A stretch of 62,194 bases of DNA, filler included, from Collodictyon triciliatum (taxonomy: Eukaryota): the NCBI GenBank assembly GCA_043381765.1. It is 6 parts of 6 records of this genome, joined end to end, with 100 filler letters (N's around TTAATTAATTAA, not from the genome) between each part and the next. Parts side by side here need not be neighbours in the genome. Positions count along the whole stretch, not along the records: positions 1 to 6,548 come from JBHJMP010000040.1; 5 more parts are not named here. One strand, 5' to 3'. Made by a program: the position numbers and the translations under genes. Under the pieces are notes generated by a model, which worked only from the letters and a program-made list of their open reading frames with translations, had not been told where the DNA came from and searched no databases. How positions within the stretch are numbered: position 1 is the first letter of the stretch; each line of letters begins with the position of its first letter. Positions 1-50,900 of this stretch are shown one piece after another.

Positions 1-21
1 AAAACCTCACAAAAATGAAAA

Positions 22-53
<32 letters not shown>

Positions 54-97
54 CTCGGTAGTTCTCTAAAGGAAAAAAATAAAATAAAGACTTTCAG

Positions 98-2066
98 ATG
101 AAGAAAAGAAAACGCCTTGAGTCTAAGAATCTAAAATTCATAAAACCACACTATGGAAATGTGAAAACATCCCTAAAGTCGGATGTAAAGAATGCAGATG
201 ACTATTACAAAACCAACGATACAGTTTTATTGTGCCATAACTTGGTTACTGACACTTTTCTGTTTGCAAGATGTTACATATTGAAATCACAACAACTCCC
301 AACAATCAATGAAAGTTTTTTTTTTTTGTGCGCTTTAAAGACAGTCAGAATTGTTTCACAAGATAGACCTGCGAGATTAAAAAAAAAAAAAAAACATCCA
401 GGTTTGAGAGATGACATGATGACCTTTTAACTTATTTATTTTCGATTCCTTTTGTCCCGAGAAGAACGCTTTCCGTTGGTTGAACTGTCTCTTGCATTAC
501 GTACTTGGCGAAGCAAATGCTAAAATCTTATCGTAATAACATTAAGATACATTTTGTGAAGAGGCTATTGCGCTTTACAAATCAAACAGTTCCTAAAGAT
601 GAAGAATATGTCCTAAGCTGTTAAAAAGGCAGAGCTTCGAAAGTTGAAAAAAAAAAAGCCATCTTCAAGAAGCTCGAAATACCGGAACAATATAAAGGAT
701 GGGCTAAAATACATTTGCATCATATCATAACCAGCGATATTGTAAATGGTATCGAATATGACGTCAAAGTCAATCCGGATAAGTGCATTCCATGTCTGAT
801 TTACATGTATCGAATTTTTGAGGACATTGAAACCAAGCTGCTTCAACCAATCTATATAAGATCTAACAATATACCGTGTCATAATACTCTAGATACTGCA
901 TGTTTGATAGTTCTATTAGTATTATCTGGGAAAACATTATTAATGAAGAATATATCAGGATGCAAAGAGACCCTATGAGATAATTTCTTTGAAATGAAGA
1001 AGGGGGTCTGTCATCGAAGGGACTACAATTTTAAATACATGATACAAACAGACAGTTTGGCGGTGTCATTATTATTTGAAAAGAAAGGTATTTCAAATTC
1101 AAAATCCAAACATAATCCAAAAGAACCAAGAATATGTTTATATAGATGAACTTTCCGAAGAGCAGCTATCTTTATTAGTGAAAAAATATGTAGTTGGAGT
1201 GGACGCAGGCAAGTTTAATTTGGTTTACATGGTGGATGAGGCAGGTAAGAAATTACGTTACACGGCACACCAAACAAGACACGATAGCAAATCTCTTAAA
1301 AATCACAAAATACTCTTGCGCGAGAAAAAAAAGTACAATGCTTCAGGGATATGCATGGCAACAGATTTACAAAGTGCTGTTTCTTTTGGTCTCAGGACTT
1401 TTGAAGAGAATCAGCAGTTTGAGACATCAAGAGTATCTTTAAACGATTTAGAGACAGAACTGAGTAAACATAACCCATGCACGGTCGATTATAAATAATT
1501 TCGAAAATATGTATCTATGAAATCAAGATGCCAGATAGAACTATCCAGATTTCATGAACACGGAAATTTTCGAAAGATGAGATGGAGACAGTATGTTAAT
1601 ACAAAAAGAAGTGAACAGTTGTTTATGGACCGAATCGAAAAGACATTTGGTAATGATGTTATACTGGCGTATGAAAACTGGAGCAGAAAATCTCCGATGA
1701 ACCATTTTATGCGAACAATCGGAAGAGGGTTACGAAAAATACCATCCAAATGTTTTGAAACAGTTAGTGTAGATGAATTTAGAACCTCCAAGATGTGTCG
1801 CCACTGCGAAAAAGAACTGGAATATATGACACTGAAAGGAAATTCAAAAAAAAGGTGTATATAAATGTCTCATATGTGAAGAATGCAATCGCCCAGAAAG
1901 CAAACAAAGTGTATTATTGACAAGGGACTTTAACAGCGCTAAAAATATAGTCAACAAAGTTCTTCTAATCCTACAAAATGTGCATACACCTTCCTCTAAA
2001 AAACAGGCTGTCGGGTCTTTCCCTGGCAGCCTTCACCACTACACAACCTTTGTGAAAAAGTGGTAA
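98..2066 (+). pseudogene. Disrupted Fanzor1-type (TnpB/Cas12-related) RNA-guided endonuclease
   Basis: Collinear fragments across frames: VKTSLKS (N-term), YLAKQMLKSYRNNIKIHFVKRLLRF (~503-577), YDVKVNP...KLLQPIYIRSNNIPCHNTLDTACL, FKYMIQTDSLAVSLLF (~1030-1077), RuvC-I VVGVDAG (Asp codon 1202-1204), AYENWS, RuvC-II VDEFRTSKMCRHC (Glu 1775-1777), CEEC, RuvC-III TRDFNSAKNI (Asp 1926-1928), stop TAA 2064-2066. In-frame stops (428-430, 976-978, 1496-1498) and several frameshifts; no introns. Confidence 0.88.
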
Positions 2067-2126
2067 GACCTTGGATACTAGCGCACCGAGTTTACCAATC
2101 GACAGATGGTATACCCCTTCTAGTAT
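2005..2126 (+). ncRNA. Putative Fanzor omegaRNA scaffold overlapping the nuclease 3' end
   Basis: Hand-found pairings: hairpin 2005-2032 (11 bp with two G-U); ACCACT 2035-2040/AGTGGT 2059-2064 enclosing CACAA/TTGTG; GGTCTT 2014-2019/AAGACC 2065-2070; ATACTAG 2075-2081/CTAGTAT 2120-2126 enclosing TACC-A-ATC[GACA]GAT-GGTA (GNRA loop). The position matches TnpB/Fanzor omegaRNAs. Confidence 0.55.
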
Positions 2127-2465
2127 TTACAAAGTTAATTTGCACGGTCATCAGAATACAGGAATTGTGTTTTACAACTTTCCAGCTGTCCTCGCCATCT
2201 GTTCTCTGTCTCCTTCATTCAATTGTTGGACTCTAATCATTTTTCATATTTTTACGAGATTCTAAATTCTCAACGCGTAGCACGAGTCACCATTTCTGAT
2301 AAACAGCAAACTGACTCGCAGCAAGGCACATAGCAAGATTGAGTACATTTCTTTCTTTTTATTATGATTTTTTTCCCTTTATTCGTTTTCTTTTTATTAT
2401 GATGAGTTCCGGGTCTTGCGTGGACGACGGACATGATTGGCGATAGAACAGGCCACAACCACGGC

Positions 2466-3649
2466 TTAGCGGTGATTTGTGCTTCCCATCTTCCGCTTCC
2501 CAGCGAAAAGATGCTTCGGCATCTTTGTGAGAATGACGCGGTCGGCTTCTCCTGACTTGGCCAGGCGATTACGGAGCTTCTGCTTCTTTCTGGCGATCTT
2601 GATGGCCTCGGTTTTTTGCTATAGAGGGCAGAGCGAAAGCAAAGGCGAATTAAGCGCAAAGGTTTTGGCTAAGACCGAGTTATCTCATTATTTTTGTTAA
2701 ATATATTCATTATCATTCATGCTTCTCATATTTTCTCCATGACGAAATATCGCTGGTTGTCTCTTTCCAGGTGGTTTCTACCTTGACGTTTCTAAAGCCG
2801 GGAGTGACACTGTTTTCATCTTCTGGTGCTGCACTTCTGGATCTTAGGAGAGAAATCAAACCGCAGAGAAGTTAACAATAGGCTGATAGTCAAAAGCTTG
2901 CTTGCCGCTTCTCGTGTACACACTGTATTCTCATGATAAACTATTTTGATCTCACGGAAAAGAGAACATATGTAGTTTTATAATGAATAACAGAACGCAT
3001 CCACGGTACTGGACATACCTCGATCTCTTGCGACCAGCAGGGCCCGTGCTTCCAGTGCTCTCCATTGCATCCTGTGTCGTTCACAGGAAAAAAGAATCAT
3101 TATTAAACGCTATAAAGCCCAAACTAGATGCGAGCTATTGATTGAATTGAAATAATTGGACAATTTCGTTATAAAATGCCATAATATATTTCTCTGAATC
3201 TCAGTTTGATTTTCAGCAACTGAACCTTGTCACGAGAGAGAGATTTGGATCGGCTTCTCCTGGGTGCGTGGGAAACAACTGAATCTACTACTGCTTCGCT
3301 GTCTGGTACACGCATCGATGAAAGTTGGCTCGAGAGAGCTTCTCGTGACTTTCTCTATATGACACGAGCATTGATTAGTAAGACAAAGGCTTTCAGAATA
3401 TATCCGTAGTGTTTAACTTCGAGATTTACGAATCAACAAAGCAAAATAGAATCTTCAGCGACCGACTTGGTTCATGAAGTTTTTTTCTTTCTCATAAATG
3501 ATTTGGAACAGTATTTTTCTTTCCAGAAAACAAAAAACAAAAAACAAAANNNNNNNNNNNNNNNNNNNNNNNNNNNNNNNNNNNNNNNNNNNNNNNNNNN
3601 NNNNNNNNNNNNNNNNNNNNNNNNNNNNNNNNNNNNNNNNNNNNNNNNN

Positions 3650-3723
<74 letters not shown>

Positions 3724-6231
3724 AGCGATTGAAGTGGGTCTTACCATCAACTTCACTCTGGGGATATGTGTCTTTCCACTTTTCTTCCAATTGTGCTCTT
3801 CTTTCATGACAAACTTCTTGTGTCGAATCTCGCGAAGAAGCTCTTCTTCATCAGAGTCGAGATCTTCGACATCTTCCTGTTAAAAACAATCAAAACGAAA
3901 CAAAAGACGCTAAATAAATGTATTGCATTTTTCTCCGTTTGTTGTGTAGAACTCTCTCTCCTCTTGTAATAGACAGGGACTGGGGCTGACTGCCCTTCTG
4001 TTGTTACAAGGTTTGTCGAGAGGTAAAAATAATCATTCCAAAATAGATAGTAGGAGCAAACCTCATCAGTTGCCTCGGTTTCCAACTCTTTAAGTCTAAT
4101 TTCTTCATCTTTCTCGAGCTCTGCAAGCTTTGCCTCGATGTCTGGATCGATAAAGTCTGCGATGTTCTTACCATCCATGATTTCCGGGATAGTGTCATAT
4201 TTCCATTCATCTCTCTTCAGAAGATATTGCTCTAGTTTTTTTTTAATAATAGTATATGAATTTTAAGAAAAGAGAGAGGAAAAATGCAAAGTGGTTTGAG
4301 GTTGACTCTTTTTTTTTCTTCATCTCTTAGAGACTTTTAAAGTGGTGATGGTGATATGAAAATAATCGTGCATACTTCGTAAGTCAGCGCTGTAAACACC
4401 GGGGCCGCCTTCCTCCCACATCACGTCTTTTTCGAGTTTGCGCCCTTCAGATGATTCAGCCTCACCCATATTCGACCTAGCACGGATAACAGACTCTGGG
4501 ATGGTGACTTCTCTAACCTATTATATGTGGTCGTGACTTTTCATACACATGCACATTCTTGTATGATATTCATGTATAGAATAAGGCATTTACAGTCGAA
4601 TTTAAGGGTGTCATTATTTTTTTTTGGCGATATAGATTAAGCCTCACCTTGTTATCTCTCGGTTTCGGCTCTGCAAGATGGAGCCGGTTGAGCACATCGT
4701 TCGACTGGAGGAGAGAAAAGTAGATTCGGTCAACAATTCGTCGTATTATAAATGTTATTCGCCTTCTTCTGGAGGTCGTACCTCTTTTTTTGTCTTGAAA
4801 TTAAATTAAAAATCGTATGCAACCTTTTTGCTTCGCAACTTCTGGTCCACACGAGACGACAGAAGCTTCTCGCAAGCAGAGTTGCGTACAGTCATGACGC
4901 CTTCCTCACTGATGTTACTCATGTGGAGGATTTCGACATTTTCTTGTTGAGCAAGGGAAGCAATAAGGGACTTATCATCTTCTGGAATGTCTTCAAATCT
5001 ACGGATGTCAATTTTGTTGACTACAACAAGGAGTGGCTTATTGGCGAATAGTGGGCGAATGTTGTTGAACAAGGCGCACTAGATATAGTCACGGTAGTAG
5101 CAGTTAGTGCACAATATCTGAAGTGAGTGTCCAAGTGTTGTTTCCTTATACTGACTTTAGAATAGAGAAGAAAAAGATCGACAATAAAAGAATAATGAGC
5201 TTACTTGCTCGCGAATAGTGTAACCGCAACGCTCGGAAATGTCGATAATGTACAAAACAGATGCACGTAGATGGGCCAGAGCAGTGATTGATTGCATCTC
5301 GATAGTATTTCTTTCTTCTAAAGGGTGGTCTAGAATACCAGGGGTGTCGATACACTGCCAGCGCAGATAGTTGAAGTCAAAATGACCAACATACAAAGAC
5401 TTTGTGGTAAAAGCGTAAGGTTGAACCTATGATATAAGCAGGAAATGTGATAATGTGGTTTAACAGGAATGACACCCGTGAAGTTATTCGATCATTAAGC
5501 ATAAAATATTCCCAAGTTTTGATGACTAAGATGATGAAATTGATGAATATACCCACCTCTACATTTGCACGACTGATAATATTCATGAAACTACTTTTAC
5601 CGACATTGGGATACCCGCAGACAAGAATCGTGCGTGTATTGGGATCGATGGACGGGAGACGAGACAAGTGTTGACGCACCTGCGGGTTAAGCACAGAGTG
5701 TGATTACTATTTTGCAAAGAAAATAAAATAAATAAAAATACATTGTTATTTAATGAGGGACACGAAGAGTGAAAGGAAGCACAGGACGCTTTTGCAAGCG
5801 AAGCTGTGATAACGACCAACCTGCTCCAAATATTCCAGGCTGGACTTCATTCCTTTCACCACTGTGCACATTCTATGAGAGGTTTAATAGTTAACAGAAT
5901 TAATATTGACCATGCCAAAACCCTCGGGAAGAGGGTTCGTGGCGGTAGTAATACGAATGCCAATACTAATAACTAGAATGATAATGATAGTTGGAGGGAG
6001 AGGCAGTAAGGATAACGGGGGGAGAGAGAGAGGATCAGGCACCTTCCCAGTGCCGCACGCTTCAGTTGTTTGCAGCGGTACAAAGAGTCTCCGTACTTCA
6101 GCAGCTTCACGTAGTCTTTACCAAGTGTATCAACCAAGTGCAGCGAAGTGTTGACGTGGCCAAGAGCCAGTTTGTAGTGGTCGCGGTCGTACAGAACATT
6201 CATCAGGTCAGCATAGAAAGGGTGGATTTCC
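2466..6231 (-). CDS. NOG1: Nucleolar GTP-binding protein 1 (60S biogenesis GTPase), multi-exon, 5'-truncated at scaffold end
   Basis: Spliced GT-AG exons give [25 protein letters not shown]-loop [57 protein letters not shown] and C-terminal [28 protein letters not shown] (TAA 2466-2468). Confidence 0.96.
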
Positions 6232-8895: not shown

Positions 8896-9810
8896 ATGGA
8901 TCACAAGAACGCGCGCTATGTCCCGCCAAAGACACAGCCAGATCATGGCAGCCCGATCAAAGCCGCAGTTGACCATGCAGAAGACAATGGGGACAATTCT
9001 TCCGAGGATTCTGGGGCGGGTGGAAAGCGAGACTGCGAGGCCAAGAGAGAAGAAGCGAACGCCAATACACCTTTCCCATTCGTTCAGAAGCTGGAAGAGA
9101 TCTTGAAGGATCAGCGGTGGAACGGAACAATTCGGTATGAAGACGACGGAAAGAGTATTGTCATCCAAGACTCTGCGCGTTTCACACAAGACGTGCTGCC
9201 GCTCTACTTTAAGCACCAAAACCTTCCGTCGTTCATTCGCCAGCTTAACATCTACGGTTTCCACAAAGCGTCGCATTCGCTACTACACTTCTCGCACCCT
9301 TCCTTTATTAAAAATCGGCCAGAGCTCCTCTCCCAGATATCCCGACGTCGCTCATCAAGAATTCTGAATTCTCCATACACCCATCCAACTCATTATGATT
9401 CCCATCACCTCCATCACGCAGAAGGGAAAGGACAACCAAACAGGTTAGAGTCAAGTACATTTCTGAAAGACAACCAGTACAACAGAAGGGAACACAGCTC
9501 GCCTTTTGAATCCCCAAGTCAATCTCCAAAAGCTGGAATGTCCAATCCGTCTTCACCAGACTCTCCTTCGGCACACGTTGATGATGAGGAAGCATCACAT
9601 AGGGCTCAAATATCGTCTTTGTCTGCATCATTTCGAGATTTGCATTCCAAAATACACGAAATACGAGAAGGCTACGAAAAAATTAAGGAAACGTTGTCTC
9701 AATTGGGAGAAGATATGACAACACTCCAAAAGCTACAAGATTCCATGCAGACCAATGCCGATCAAATTGTCGACCATCTTCATAGTATCGTTCCAGTTGG
9801 TATGGTTTAC

Positions 9811-9909
<99 letters not shown>

Positions 9910-10913
9910 ATTTTTTATCTTTTTATCTTTTTATCTTTTTGATTCACCTCCACCGTATCCAATTTTCTTACTCATTTCTTTCCCTGTTTGCCCCTCCCAA
10001 ATTGAACTCATTTGATACAAATTTCAGTCTTTTGAAAAAAAAAGGTAGAAATTAGAAAGTAAAAAAAGTGCGCCAAAATGATTCTTCAATATTTTATCAC
10101 ACCTTCTGCCTGTATATTTGCTTGCGGCTTACACATTTCTTGTGTGTATTTTCAGATATCCTCAATCAGATCAAAGGAGTTTCTCCTCAGAACCCTCTTA
10201 CTTCCCAGCCAAAACCACCGCCGTTTGAAGTACATGAAAACAGAACAACACATATTCCTCCAATTCACTTATCAAAGCCGAATAGTACTGATCTAATTGA
10301 AATGTACAAAGAACATGGGGATAAACATCAGCAGAGAATCTTTGATGACAATCGTATTACCGACCACCCTAGTGATAACAAAATAACTTCATGCCAAATC
10401 GCGACGTTAGGGGTGGTTGCCTCAGTAAATCAGTTCCAAACTCCGTCTAACAAGTATATGAGGCGAACTCAAAGTCACAAGTGGAATGCATTGAAACCTA
10501 AAACACAACAGCCAAAAAAGATATATGAAATCTTTGTTCCTGAGCGCCCTTTCCCAATACCTCTGTCATCCTTACCAAAGAAGCAGAATATTGTACTCTT
10601 AGGTTCACTAAGAGATATGCGTGATAATGGTAAGTAGTGCGATTGTCTTTCTCATGCTAATCGATGCAGTGGAGAATTATTGTCCACAACCCCTTTTAAA
10701 CGTTTCAATGTTTCTAATTTTGAAATCTTTGTAAAAGCAATCGACCCTGATTCATTACTGGTGCAAACTGCAATATCCGGTCTACAATCTTTGAGCAACT
10801 CAGACGATGTTCCAAAAATCACCGAGACTAAGATAACAGAGACAATACGTGATTTTAGAGCTAACCCGACGCCAAGAAGAATATACCAGTTTTTTCAAGG
10901 TATTTTCAAATGA
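8896..10913 (+). CDS. HSF-type DNA-binding transcription factor (multi-exon; 3' exon structure uncertain)
   Basis: HSF domain PFVQKLEEIL...IRYEDDGKSIVI...VLPLYFKHQNLPSFIRQLNIYGFHK...FSHPSFIKNRPELLSQISRR followed by a heptad coiled coil. GTATGG donor ~9800, TTCAG acceptor ~10156, and a further short intron near 10630-10669. Confidence 0.85.
9811..9909 (+). repeat. (ATCT)n intronic microsatellite
   Basis: Tetramer array immediately after the HSF intron donor. Confidence 0.95.
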
Positions 10914-42545: not shown

Positions 42546-45500
42546 TTATTGGGACATTGGGTCGAATGTAGATTTCCTTTCGGTGATTTTTTTCAATTCA
42601 TAAATTTTTTTCTGTATTGTGTTATTTTGGAAAAGTGGGACGACAAAAGCCACACCGATATAAAAAATCACCCAAATGGAATTTATCCCGACCAAAATAA
42701 CAGTAACCCACGCCTCAGAGCCAAGAAAACTCGACAAAAGAGCCAAGAAAAAGGAAATGAAAATGACATACAAGCTAGAGAGTTCCATTTGATTTTCAAT
42801 TTTTGAATTGTAAGGTCTGTACTCTTTCTGCATCCAAATGGAGCCCTGCATGTATATTCCTTCTTTTAAAAAAAAAAANNNNNNNNNNNNNNNNNNNNNN
42901 NNNNNNNNNNNNNNNNNNNNNNNNNNNNNNNNNNNNNNNNNNNNNNNNNNNNNNNNNNNNNNNNNNNNNNNNNNNNNNNNNNNNNNNNNNNNNNNNNNNN
43001 NNNNNNNNNNNNNNNNNNNNNNNNNNNNNNNNNNNNNNNNNNNNNNNNNNNNNNNNNNNNNNNNNNNNNNNNNNNNNNNNNNNNNNNNNNNNNNNNNNNN
43101 NNNNNNNNNNNNNNNNNNNNNNNNNNNNNNNNNNNNNNNNNNNNNNNNNNNNNNNNNNNNNNNNNNNNNNNNNNNNNNNNNNNNNNNNNNNNNNNNNNNN
43201 NNNNNNNNNNNNNNNNNNNNNNNNNNNNNNNNNNNNNNNNNNNNNNNNNNNNNNNNNNNNNNNNNNNNNNAAACATAAAATTACGAATAACGAACTTTAA
43301 ATAAAAATAAAAATAATTATAAACCTCTTTGTAAGGCAGATACAGAAATCCGTATCTGGCCCCGGGTTCATATCCAGGCTTCTCGACCATAATTTTCACT
43401 TTTTTCCAGAGGAATACAGGCAGTCCAACCAAAAATAAGATGAAAATAGGGACCGAAATGGCCAATAATTTTCGATACTCATCTGAGGCCGGGCTGCATG
43501 GTATCCATGGGGCATAATTTAGGTACCAAACATGCTCACCTTTGTCATAAACTGTGCACCCAAAGACACCAAAAACCTCGGTTGCGACAGAATAGTATAT
43601 AAGAAACAAGAGATTCAAAGTGATAAAGACTGCCTATAATAGTAATAGAAAAGTATGTTAAAATGGTGTCTTATAGATATCCATAAATCATATATTGTAC
43701 CTTATTCCTTCTGTGGCCGTATCCAAGATGGTAGACAGCAGTACCAATAAGAATAAATATTGGTATTCTTGAAAAACTAAATATTAATGACCCAAGCATA
43801 TCACCTTGAATGCGCGCACACGACAGGTTGGGAAATTGTATTGATCCAACAGAAGACGAAATGTCGAGAAATCTGTTTGCCTCATTCGTTTGCATCAATC
43901 CAGAAGAAAAAATTGACAAGGTTTGCATGTGAAACATGATGATTCTAAGCTTTGCTATTATTCATAAAAAAAAAACATTAAATAAGCATCTGATATCAGG
44001 TTTTTTATATGTGTTTCATCAAATACAATAAAAATAAACCAACCTGATTTTGATGTTTCCAAAAAGTAAAGATGGCATATGAGCAAAAAGAATCCGATAG
44101 AACATAGAATGATCGATGAGTAAACTGCCGAATTATTGCATTTTACGCATGACCTACCCTGAGGCACATACCCATCAACACATTTTGAGCAAGCATGACC
44201 TTCATATCCCTCTATACACAATTCAGTAACCTCCATCGTTTCGTTGGAATGAACGAGTTTACTTGGTATTATAGAATGACATGATTGTGGCCTTGGACAG
44301 GGTAGAATTGATTTAAGGTCATATAAAGTAGGAGAAGCATGACACTTCTCCAACGTAACCCCATTGACGCATTCACAGCCTCTTGGACATTGGATACAAT
44401 TGCTTCCATAACCAAAATAACCAGGCAAGCACTTACAATATTCAAAATCATAATAATGAGGATTTAAACCAACTTTTAGTTGAACAAGTCCTAGTTCTGA
44501 ATAAATTGAAGGGCACATGTAAAGCCTCGATTCATCTTCTAAGTTAAAGGGCGCAGAGTAGTTCATAAAATCTGGGATGAAATTAGATTTACCATGGTTC
44601 ATGAATGTTCCATTCAATCCCAAGTACTCTAGCTTCGAAAATTGGCTGTATGATTCAGGTATGCTCCCAAAAATTGGATTGCCAGACAGTTCCAGATAAC
44701 TCCACTTCAGGAGATTTGTTAGTTCCCCAAGTTTAGTTATCTTGTTGTTTTTTAGAATAAGAGTTTTTAAATTCTCTACAAAATTAAAAATTCTCCAGTT
44801 CATTTCCCCAAAAAGGTGGTTATCTCCGAGCAAAAGGATTTCATAACTGTAATTAAAGTATCCTGAATCAGGGACTAAGAAAACAACAACATCTCCAGAG
44901 AAAGAATTGTTTGTCAAATCTATAGAAATGAGGTTTGGTAAATTCCAAAAGAGGTTCGGCATACTTCCTGAGAATTGATTGTGCGATAAAGTCAGTGATT
45001 TTAGATGAAACATTTTTTGAAAGTATTCCGGAACTGTATCATTCATTTGATTTCTGGACAAATCGATGTATTTTATCAAAGGCACGTTCCAGTATCTAGG
45101 AATAGATCCAGATATACTATTTTCACTAACATCTAATTTAGACAAGTTAGGCAACTGGAAGAGAGGTAAACTTCCAGTAAAATTGTTTCTAAATAGGACC
45201 AACTCCTTCAACTTCAGGCAATACTCAAAACTTGGAACAAGCCCTTCCAAAAGATTGTCATAAAAAGATATATATTCCAAGTTTGGTGTATTTCTGAAAC
45301 TAGGAACAATACCTGTATTTTTAAAATTAGGGTATCGTATCATACAACATGTAAAGATGTGTTCAAATCACCTTCCAATTTATTTCCATCCAAGTAAATG
45401 CTTCGAAGCTCAGATATGTTGCTGAAATCCGGTATAGTTTCTGAAAACCGAGACAATTTCAGAAAATAGTATATTGTTTATGCATGAAAGAAAACTCACC

Positions 45501-47909: not shown

Positions 47910-50900
47910 AATATCGATTCAGTATAAATGATAAATTAATCATACTACAATCCTGTTCGTTATAAAATGAAAATATGACAGCATCAAATCGTGATAATTA
48001 TTTATACTATATTGATATTGGTTTTATTCTTATGTTCATTTTTCTTTAGAGCATGCTTTTGCATTTTATATCAAATTTTAATCAAACGGACTATGGTCAA
48101 TAATAAAGCAATCAAATGCAAACTTTATCATGCAGCCTCTCATCTTTTTCAATTTCAGAGTCAGTGGGTCGAGATAAAGAGTAATAACAATCACCCTCGT
48201 CTGATTGGGATGCTGATTTATTTCTTTTCCTAATTTTTGTGGATTAAGATGAAAATGATAGTTGAAACCATCCATATTAAAAACTGTATGAAGCTAAAAA
48301 ATTGAGGCAAATAAAAAATTCAAATACTGATCCAATTTAATGAAAAAATTATCGTTTTCAACTTTAAATAATTAGCTCTTGAATATTTTAATCATTATTT
48401 ACATATTTTGTAATCAATTAGTAATAAAAGCTTTAATATTTTAGAAATTTATATTTAATTTCAATTCTGTAATACAGCATGGAGAATTTTCATCAGAATT
48501 ATTGTTATTTTAAATATGGAATTATATTGGAATTAAGGTAATTTTAATATGTTTTTGGTCTTAAAGGTGATTGATAATCATCTGAATTATTGATTCAATA
48601 TATTTATGAACAAAAAAAGTTCTACTGATGGTATCGCTTTGATTAACTCACATGATAAAAAGTTTATATGATAAATTTATTTTAGGAGAAATCATCTCAA
48701 TAGAATAGAAACGTTCAAAGAGTTACATATATGTTTGGGTTTTTATACACTTCATATTGGCTTGATTAACTACTTTGGAGAAAATGGACGCACATCATTA
48801 AAAATTTTGATAATAATTTTACGTTCTATTCTTCAATTAAACTATAAAAAATTATTGAAAATAACTGATACAAATATAATCATCAATATTAGTTAAAGAA
48901 ATCGTATCAGTTGGTCTTGCTTTAATGAATAGTTGATTGTCAGGGTTTTCAATAGGCTTTTTCAATATTGACTTGTTATTGAGACATGCATTTATCATAT
49001 TTAATATATTAAAGTAATACAGAGATATGGTGATCAATTATATATGGTTTTTGAGGTACATTTTTTTCTGTTAATTTGCCGAATCCTTGATTTTATAAAA
49101 AAAAAAAAAGAAAAGTGAACTTCAGTTATTCAAAAACTATTCCCATAGGACTTTATTATCACACAAAATTAAGAATATTATCCAAGGATTTAAAAAGTAG
49201 ATAAACTCAATATTTCGGTACCATTATATTTAGATTAAGGTAATTTTCCTATATGCAATTTAGTAATTGTTTATTTTATAGCTCATTGCATGGCATTGAA
49301 TATTGTGAGGTTGATGTATTATCATAAAAAAATTTGTTCGTGAGGAAAATGAGTGAAGTGCCTTTATATTCAAACATAAGAGGAACGATAGAAATCGATA
49401 TTTATTTATCTATGATGGAAATATTCCTCCATAATTTTATACAAATACATTGCGTATAAATTTCATATACAGTCATAATTATAGAATTTTTTGTGTGATT
49501 GCAAACATAAATATTGATATATCTAAAATAAAAATATTATATTTGATTTTAATTAATCAAAATTTTTTACTTAATTATTTTTACTATTCTGATATTTTTG
49601 AATTAAATCGTTTAACCGACGAAAATCTATTTGCCTTTTTTATATTGGCAAAGCATTTTCTTCTGATAGTTATTTATTTTAAAAGGTAGTTTGAGTGTTT
49701 GCCTGGTCATTTAACCTGCTCTTATTTATCAAATAGCTGATAACGGCTTGAATTTTGTACGATATATTTCATAAGTAAAAACCCCATTTTTTTTCATTTT
49801 TGATGACCCTCAAATCTTAAAGAAAATTGCGACCCCGTTACCAAAAGGCTTTCTTGCACCTCTGATGCTGCAGGTAGAATGTTCATTTCCTTAAAAATAA
49901 AAAGCTCTTTTATAAAAAAAAAATTAATAACAATAATAATAACACAGTTTCATATTGATAGGAAACTTCCAACAATTTTTATCGAATTCTATGAGCCAAT
50001 CATTTTACTTACGAAAAGGGGTAATTCAATATCACATAAATAAACCAATATGATAAAAATATTGTTGGCACGGGCGCCAACAGCTAAGTCTGTCGTGTAT
50101 AAAAAAAATAAACCAATATGATCTCTATGAGGCCGCCTCGAATACGCACAAGAAACCTCCCTTATAAGAAAACTATCGTTATTCTATGAATAAAAAACTG
50201 TATGTGCCATCCTTTAATTTTTAATTGCTGCACGATGACGATTTTCAGAACCTCATAATAGACTCTTAAAAAAATAAACGAAGAGCATGTAGGATATTGA
50301 AAGGGTTTCTGGGTAAGCTTGAAGAGGGTAAAATAGATCTGATAGTTTCGTTTAGACCACTTAAAGGGGATCAAAGATAGTCTCGTTTCCACTCTTCTGC
50401 GCTTGTAAACCTTCATTCCAACTCCAAAACGATTATAAAAAAATAATTGATCAAGCAATGAGAGAAATGCAAATGTTTGACTTCACCCATCCCTGAAGAG
50501 TGTTTATAACCGGCTTCCAGTGGATTATTGAAGTTTCTGAGCGCTCGACCAGACATAGTACCTTGCTCAATATTTGGAGTCCCTCTTTCGAGAGCGTTGT
50601 TGGGACGGGTGCTGAGCTTTTTTACTTGGAACTTCAGGAGACTGTGTTGATCGCTGCTCCTTCGCGGACATAGTCCGATTTAGTTGGCCATCCAATCTCC
50701 GAATCAACATAATTTTGCTTTCGTTTATCACTCCTCCCTTTGTCAAAATATACTCCACCGCCTTTGACACCAAAATCGAGGGCCTTGTTTGATGAAAGGT
50801 CTTCAGGCACACCAATCCACAAATCAAAGAGCGCCCAAGAGCAGAACCTGCACGGAACCGGCTGCTGCATCCGCCTTCAATGTAATTGCAGGCTGCCACT

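Follow-up and report, generated by a model that had tools for sequence, protein, structure and literature searches.

A candidate omegaRNA scaffold at the 3′ end of a dead Fanzor1 gene copy in DNA from Collodictyon triciliatum

Introduction

Fanzor nucleases work with omegaRNAs that carry a guide of 14–21 nt, copied from the DNA just past the element's right end (PMC10432273, PMC10530073). ISDra2 TnpB (IS200/IS605) has the ancestor-type arrangement, in which the omegaRNA shares sequence with the 3′ end of tnpB and runs to the right end, with the flank supplying the guide (PMC10432273). Here, we describe a candidate scaffold of this kind at positions 2001–2126 (+ strand) of a stretch of DNA from Collodictyon triciliatum, where three hairpins span the end of a decayed Fanzor1 gene. 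The whole stretch that was analysed, called the window, is 62,194 bases long, and all positions count along it.

Fanzor1 omegaRNAs are 75–150 nt long, with a conserved stem-loop first and free variation after it (PMC11423790, PMC10432273), and this first stem-loop of 7 bp (SL1) contacts RuvC/TNB in the protein (PMC11423790). The omegaRNA of Guillardia theta GtFz1 has ca 150 nt and several stem-loops, and the last 17 codons of the coding sequence overlap it (PMC11423790, PMC10432273). For Spizellomyces punctatus SpuFz1, the scaffold of 75 nt and two stems lies after the stop codon, within the 3′ inverted repeat at the right end of the element, and transcripts run 14–15 nt past it, which is the guide (PMC10432273). 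S. punctatus also has "ghost" omegaRNA loci without a working Fanzor gene that still guide the nuclease in trans (PMC10432273). In Chlamydomonas, 20 orphan copies of the Fanzor RNA (fRNA) have been described, and Jiang et al. report Helitron-borne Fanzors there (PMC10530073).

The present locus resembles GtFz1 (PDB 9cer and others) in its protein, GtFz1 being the best solved match of P0001, an intact homologue of the window's gene. Going by the published description of the GtFz1 RNA, both would also have a multi-stem-loop RNA over the end of the open reading frame (ORF); the scaffold in the window would have ca 122–126 nt, three hairpins and ca 20 codons of overlap. Set against the 7-bp SL1, the candidates are hairpin 1 with 11 bp, the lower tier of hairpin 2 with 6–8 bp and the outer stem of hairpin 3 with 7 bp. 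The locus differs from SpuFz1 in having two helices inside the ORF and no inverted repeat that could be found, while the ghost omegaRNAs of S. punctatus offer a model for what the dead copy in the window could still do. With ISDra2 TnpB it would share the ancestor-type arrangement, although that system is prokaryotic and has another scaffold.

Results and Discussion

The candidate stretch comprises the last 20 codons of the gene and 60 nt past the stop, and lies on the nuclease's strand, spanning the stop codon. It folds into three hairpins, relatives of the gene carry a covarying structure at the same place, and hairpins 1 and 2 match significantly a covariance model, R2, built from the nearest of these relatives. 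We consider it probable that 2001–2126 (+) is the 3′-terminal end, coding for the omegaRNA scaffold, of one dead member of a multicopy Fanzor1 family. The model match would then reflect homology, and the candidate scaffold is most likely an ordinary feature of a known Fanzor family. By analogy with the studied systems, its RNA may be, or may once have been, made and bound by the nuclease.

The gene is a decayed Fanzor1 ORF at 98–2066 (+). Residues 1–633 of P0001, which has 648 aa, can be aligned to 98–2015 in four pieces lying in different frames, 98–499 (frame 2), 496–1065 (frame 1), 1118–1861 (frame 2) and 1851–2015 (frame 3), and the stop codon TAA is found at 2064–2066. The copy is broken by at least three frameshifts and by four in-frame stops (428–430, 622–624, 976–978 and 1496–1498), while the RuvC motifs GVDAGKFN, AYENWS and RDFNSAKN and CxxC pairs are found in the ORF. 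P0001 shows 62% identity across 89% of the window's 140-aa fragment, and a second close relative, P0005, also has 648 aa. With the 115-aa fragment of the window as query, a full HMMER scan gave 1027 proteins at E ≤ 1e-3, many of them of 600–700 aa.

Among solved Fanzor1 proteins, P0001 matches GtFz1 (E 2.1e-28), Parasitella parasitica PpFz1 (2.7e-24) and SpuFz1 (3.7e-23). The initial annotation's assignment of the gene to Fanzor is confirmed by these matches, through which the protein next to the candidate scaffold belongs to the TnpB/Fanzor family of RuvC nucleases. Judged from its sequence, the window gene is a Fanzor1 relative and a dead copy, which cannot make its own protein. No second Fanzor copy was found in the window, where tblastn gives one Fanzor locus and nucleotide self-matches are only poly-A. 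The left end and the transposon-adjacent motif (TAM) are out of view, because no more than 97 nt of the window precede the start codon of the Fanzor gene.

Folding energies were judged against shuffled sequences. The + strand of 2005–2126 folds to −39.9 kcal/mol with the three hairpins formed (shuffles −28.0 ± 3.4; z −3.49; 1 of 200 as good), and the wider interval 1960–2170, for which such a comparison had been suggested, gives z −3.00. Hairpin 1 (2005–2032, +) has 11 bp, including the G-U pairs T2011–G2026 and G2013–T2024, and a TCTTTC loop; it lies inside the codons for KQAVGSFPGSL and folds to −18.9 kcal/mol (z −5.31), which none of 200 shuffles equals. Hairpin 2 (2035–2064, +) is two-tiered with 6 + 5 bp and folds to −8.3 kcal/mol (z −1.93; 11 of 200). 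Its upper tier pairs 2042–2046 with 2050–2054; the lower one, 2033–2040 with 2059–2066, is folded as 2035–2064 in this copy, and together with its model counterpart the hairpin extends over 2033–2066. It contains the motif GAAAAAGT (2054–2061) and the stop codon, and therefore hairpins 1 and 2 overlap the last codons of the gene. Hairpin 3 (2075–2126, +), the terminal domain of the stretch, consists of a 7-bp outer stem, ATACTAG/CTAGTAT (2075–2081 with 2120–2126), enclosing a GACA-capped inner hairpin of TACCA/TGGTA, and folds to −11.4 kcal/mol (z −2.47; 4 of 200). Without hairpin 1, the interval 2033–2126 gives −20.9 kcal/mol (z −1.84; 12 of 200). All three hairpins and their overlap with the coding end are as the initial annotation had them. 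Its GNRA cap has to be abandoned, because the loop at 2101–2104 carries C at the third place, where a purine is required, and is thus GNNA. A search of the Rfam families against positions 1–4000, which include the candidate stretch, gave no match.

Relatives for comparison were found in viral contigs, mostly giant-virus metagenome-assembled genomes (MAGs), and in freshwater metagenomes. A metagenome scan with P0001 alone gave 184 stretches, none of which was confirmed, and an alignment-based scan gave 423 relatives, the best of them with 49% identity. The viral contigs gave 456. The best 80 of each kind were kept (L001–L160; 37–49% identity to P0001). Of these 160 loci, 146 had a + strand C-terminal tblastn match, 141 of which had a stop and 135 at least 150 nt after it, leaving 127 distinct 3′ ends. 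Similarity in the region past the stop connects all 127. Conservation runs at 70–99% through the ORF end and drops abruptly ca 85 nt after the commonest stop (in the same alignment column in 89 of the 127 loci), right behind a GGTGTAAA motif.

Covariation was assessed in 36 representatives, i.e. 38 with less than 93% mutual identity, taken from 95 distinct 5′ modules, minus L019 (mis-anchored) and L027 (aberrant insert). Three helices, namely stem A, an enclosed hairpin B and a variable hairpin C, are 87.7% paired there, compared with 71.6% in column shuffles and 36–58% when the partners are slid by 1–3 columns. Fourteen of the 19 pairs have changes on both sides, and not one of the five measures is matched by any of 500 shuffles. 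For the 7 loci nearest the window, RNAalifold predicts a 12-bp hairpin 0, stem A with hairpin B directly after it, a small hairpin, and a long stem around hairpin D, with compensatory changes in 15 of the 43 pairs. Six of the 12 pairs of hairpin 0 occur as UG or GU, which is compatible with the + strand only. By these alignments, the clade carries a covarying multi-stem RNA on the + strand, from ca 110 nt before the stop to the element end, as expected of an omegaRNA scaffold.

Within this clade (e.g. L009:4265–4445 and L085:2930–3093), ca 165 nt are kept from the last codons to the boundary behind GGTGTAAA, with the near-invariant words CGTCTTTCAC, GAAAAAGTNAGAC, TTGATTTTAC and GTTTTAAATGT. 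The region looks like an uncharacterised omegaRNA family. At the other end of the viral clade's elements, no sharp 5′ edge was seen within 210 nt upstream of the start codon.

Built from the 7 loci closest to the window, the model R2 covers hairpin 0 together with stem A and hairpin B in 87 positions and 25 pairs. The loci scoring best against the window's own fragments are L085/L082, L081/L001, L093 and L002/L003/L083/L084; these giant-virus and freshwater-metagenome Fanzor1 loci have ca 40–55% protein identity to the fragments. With filters off, R2 was searched against all 62,194 bases on both strands (ca 124 kb). The top match is of full length at 2001–2085 on the + strand, with 22.9 bits and an E-value, itself rough, of 5.4e-5. 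The next one has 12.7 bits (E 0.099), which makes the top match the single significant one. In this alignment, hairpin 1 corresponds to the relatives' hairpin 0, with 11 of 12 model pairs canonical in the window. The lower tier of hairpin 2 (2033–2037 with 2062–2066) corresponds to stem A, the upper tier corresponds to hairpin B, and the window's GAAAAAGU is placed on the relatives' GAGAAAGU. The window keeps 21 of the 25 pairs canonical; compared with the commonest pair of the relatives, 8 of these are identical, 3 have one side changed and 10 have both sides changed, counts which lean to R2 because the alignment is fitted to the model. The four mispairs include C2034–A2065.

By the R2 alignment, the window shares with the L001–L160 clade, over the ORF end, a hairpin 0 that is followed by stem A with hairpin B inside it, and also a GA(A/G)AAAGU motif ahead of the 3′ strand of stem A. 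It differs in that the clade's 3′ domain (TTGATTTTAC, the long stem around hairpin D and the terminal GGTGTAAA) was not detected in the window, which ends in its own hairpin 3, and the candidate scaffold is ca 40 nt shorter. The comparison of homologous 3′ ends that the initial annotation had called for is answered in part: the covariation and the sharp boundary are there, in loci as distant as ca 40–55% protein identity, but hairpin 3 has no counterpart among them.

A further observation concerns the reading frames over hairpin 2. Frame 2 of 1999–2236 is open for 79 codons, and 2052–2072 reads EKVVRPW in it, which resembles what the 3′ strand of stem A encodes in the relatives, (E/G)KV(R/G)(P/Q)S. 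The shared nucleotides look conserved as nucleic acid and not as protein, because the Fanzor frame and the P0001 tail read otherwise. An exact pattern taken from 2052–2070 has no match in viral contigs; in prokaryote genomes it has three matches of 19–20 nt, which lack wider similarity and were put down to chance.

It should be stressed that a number of points weigh against the identification of a scaffold. R2 rests on 7 sequences with an effective number of 1.41. Its halves, searched apart, score little, 3.7 bits for hairpin 2 and nothing for hairpin 1, and it also gives 22.6 bits to L085's own hairpin 0 on the reverse strand, an effect of the arms of a perfect hairpin, which look the same from either strand. 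A model built mostly from the larger "typical" clade, R1, scores only 3.0 bits at 2030–2095 (E 2.1 in 701 nt), and nhmmer with R1's alignment finds nothing at 2005–2126. R3, a model of the relatives' 3′ domain, finds nothing at 2060–2200, leaving hairpin 3 without a detectable counterpart. Its best matches lie elsewhere, the top one at 48906–48983 (+) with 21.3 bits and E 0.011, and this shows that ca 20 bits can arise in an AT-rich window with a small model. The helices of the 36 representatives were read from the same sequences that were tested, which favours them over the slid versions. As for folding, the excess stability comes mostly from hairpin 1, the only individually unusual hairpin. 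The minus strand of 2005–2126 reaches −40.5 kcal/mol (z −2.17; equalled by 7 of 200 shuffles), and z ≤ −2.5 occurs in 4 of 136 windows of 122 nt (both strands of 61–2862), so a z near −3 is not unique; two of the four contain hairpins 1 and 2, and the other two are on the minus strand, around 1461–1622. Folding alone is suggestive. The proposal that G-U pairs mark a + strand RNA holds for hairpin 1, where the minus strand has A-C in place of the two G-U pairs, but not for the stretch as a whole, and the strand specificity of folding is limited to that hairpin.

The single unusual hairpin, the 4 of 136 windows and the lack of homology by R1, nhmmer and R3 would all suit chance palindromes in a decaying gene end, i.e. 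one strong and two ordinary hairpins without function. We regard this explanation as rather unlikely. The R2 match is the sole significant one in ca 124 kb and falls at the place and on the strand expected beforehand, 21 of 25 pairs are kept with 10 of them changed on both sides, and the majority variant at position 2065, discussed below, repairs a pair of the model. A miss by the present models means little, since R2 is so narrow that with default filters it recovers only 5 of 84 other loci, and misses the window match as well. The null result with R3 near hairpin 3 agrees with the free variation of Fanzor1 omegaRNAs past the first stem-loop (PMC11423790).

Close copies of the element were seen through contigs of four public runs from three studies, placed on the window at ≥80% likeness. 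Two of the runs are from single organisms (X2 and X5, for which the label RNA is a guess), and the other two, X1 and X3, are metagenomes. Over 900–2400, there are 214, 227, 44 and 76 contigs of the four runs, with more than 200 each for X2 and X5, and because these hundreds of contigs are of graded likeness, from <90% to >99%, the element belongs to a large multicopy family. The differences considered here are only a part of the whole, 365 further differences and 48 further indels lying beyond them. Among those listed, at least four are inside 2005–2126, namely a missing base at 2021, 2063 G>A, 2065 A>G and 2088 G>A.

The variant at 2065 turns the C2034–A2065 mispair into C-G, and gives a stem A of UCACC/GGUGA, compared with UGACC/GGUCA in the relatives, i.e. 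with a flipped pair. G is the majority at this position in all four runs, with 44.3 of 67.3 in depth for X2, 24.2 of 28.8 for X5, 5.37 of 5.37 for X1 and 10.5 of 10.5 for X3. This variant is independent of the model building, and its direction is the one that the model predicts. As regards the initial annotation's impression of a scaffold better preserved than the ORF, the window copy thus has, in the conserved stem, a mispair from which most of the other copies are free. At 2021, ca 40% of depth lacks a base, and this indel, the commonest among those listed, falls within the loop of hairpin 1 or next to it. With this base removed, the fold has −40.2 kcal/mol and the three hairpins are intact, and a reading frame is restored with the tail SFLAAFTTTQPL, similar to the P0001 tail YSSTALTVTHKR. 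Of the remaining two, 2063 G>A is a minority variant, and 2088 G>A, present in every contig but one of X1's two, affects only an isolated pair that is absent from the centroid structure.

The family contigs cover the stretch up to 2123–2126, the last covered bin being 2073–2123, and record 30 of X5 matches 1998–2126 and then continues with 27 letters unlike the window. This points, weakly, to a putative right end of the element at 2124–2126, at or near the last base of the outer stem of hairpin 3; the call is weak because it relies on one contig, whose copy may be truncated. Contig depth is 0.4, 1.11, 0 and 0 in the bin 2124–2174 and 0 in 2175–2225, and the uncovered flank carries no weight. 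A word search of public runs gave no RNA run that carries the sequence, and all 15 rows listed contain ≤0.09 of the sampled words, which has no bearing on expression. In X1, a subsurface metagenome, some contigs part from the window upstream of 1999 and downstream of 2032 and continue there in long, GC-rich sequence unrelated to it; in that metagenome, it may be just hairpin 1 that matches something else, possibly a chance palindrome.

The position of the hairpins at the putative element end raises the question of whether they act as DNA, as right-end recognition structures of the carrier transposon that are bound by a transposase or form in single-stranded DNA; the likeness to the relatives would then be that of conserved transposon ends. 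Hairpins 2 and 3 are almost pure Watson–Crick palindromes, and, as noted above, the minus strand folds as well as the + strand. There is also a CTAG at 2120–2123, adjoining the boundary, that is reminiscent of a Helitron 3′ end. Helitrons have a 5′ TC end and a terminal CTRR with a GC-rich hairpin ca 10 nt before it. In the window, the CTAG is preceded only by the 8-nt palindrome GGTATACC, and no terminal inverted repeat was found between 1–150 and 2050–2130. Moreover, the G-U pairs of hairpin 1, like the UG or GU seen at 6 of the 12 pairs of hairpin 0 in the relatives, can form on the + strand only, and the relatives' helices reach ca 110 nt before the stop, inside coding sequence and far from the terminus. 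We consider a DNA role in place of a scaffold unlikely, and it should be noted that the two are not exclusive, as the end region is transcribed into guide RNA in the Fanzor systems studied (PMC10432273).

The initial annotation had further proposed a long-range pairing of GGTCTT with AAGACC that uses the loop side of hairpin 1 and forms a pseudoknot or switch. The complementarity exists, between 2014–2019 (+) and 2065–2070, but the pairing itself is unsupported. Forcing it raises the energy from −39.9 to −27.3 kcal/mol, a cost of 12.6 kcal/mol, its ensemble probability is ca 0, and only 4 nt of the 6-nt loop are free. An alternation of hairpin 1 with this 6-nt pairing as a regulatory switch could draw on the "typical" clade, which has a covarying GTCTT/AAGAC stem around its hairpin B, and on the word pattern GTCTT..TCAC..GAAAAAGT..AGAC, found a single time in the window and in one of 400 shuffles, with gaps chosen after seeing the data. 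However, R1 has the GTCTT/AAGAC stem built in and fails to match the window, and the significant R2 alignment has stem A at 2033–2037 with 2062–2066, i.e. not at the proposed pairing. The equation of the two stems was dropped for this reason, and we find a switch or pseudoknot very improbable. Taken as a whole, the suggestion of an omegaRNA-like end of a Fanzor gene stands as regards the Fanzor1 identity, the position and the fit of hairpins 1 and 2 to the relatives' model, without the switch and the GNRA cap.

If 2001–2126 is indeed a scaffold end, the following arrangement can be envisaged. In working copies, a transcript running through the ORF end would fold into a scaffold of three parts that is bound by the nuclease. 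Hairpin 1, equivalent to the relatives' hairpin 0, would be the first part, the two-tier hairpin 2, as stem A enclosing hairpin B, the second, and a lineage-specific terminal domain, hairpin 3, the third. Such a scaffold would stop near 2126, where the element has its putative right end, and 15–20 nt of the adjoining flank would be read as the Fanzor guide. By analogy, the RNA would extend from ca 2001–2035 to ca 2141–2147, with the guide starting at 2127, and the putative guide-supplying flank would be 2127–2146 (+), as suggested by PMC10432273. Alternatively, the helices might be a cis element of the Fanzor mRNA only, acting in 3′-end stability, termination or translation control of the last codons, and never a guide RNA. 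They do overlap the coding end, and there is no sign of processing or of a guide here, but a conserved structured 3′ region is the guide scaffold in every Fanzor or TnpB system treated in PMC10432273, PMC11423790 and PMC10530073, and we hold this alternative to be quite improbable.

On the scaffold interpretation, one more lineage would come under the known rule that the Fanzor1 guide-RNA scaffold spans the ORF end. The first two scaffold helices would be common to a eukaryotic copy and the giant-virus/freshwater clade, with compensatory changes, while the guide-proximal domain would have been replaced. This would be of use in the annotation of Fanzor ends and in the choice of compact scaffolds, and would leave the picture of how the system works unchanged. 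A bolder proposal is that dead Fanzor1 copies are transcribed through an intact scaffold and loaded in trans by the family's few intact nucleases, as a dispersed guide library. Hundreds of decayed copies, each aimed at its own flank, would then amount to a eukaryotic, array-less analogue of guide diversification. Such present-day activity in trans, suggested by analogy with the ghost loci, seems to us an outside chance.

Beyond the Fanzor1 gene, the search with R1 over the whole window gave only one match, at 5135–5204 (+; 18.1 bits, E 0.19). This match and that of R3 at 48906–48983 are probably noise in AT-rich DNA, with no Fanzor-like ORF nearby, although they may be orphan scaffold fragments. 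The window has a GC content of 35% and 2250 N in all, with long poly-A/T runs and N blocks at 17–52, 366–385, 3540–3720 and others. Its remainder looks eukaryotic, as judged from the genes found. Ordinary eukaryotic genes surround the element, namely an ORF with an HSF-type DNA-binding domain at 8896–9942 (+), an LRR-repeat protein at 43958–45343 (−), and a weak match, below the Pfam cut-off, to the NOG1 C-terminal domain at 3804–4178 (−).

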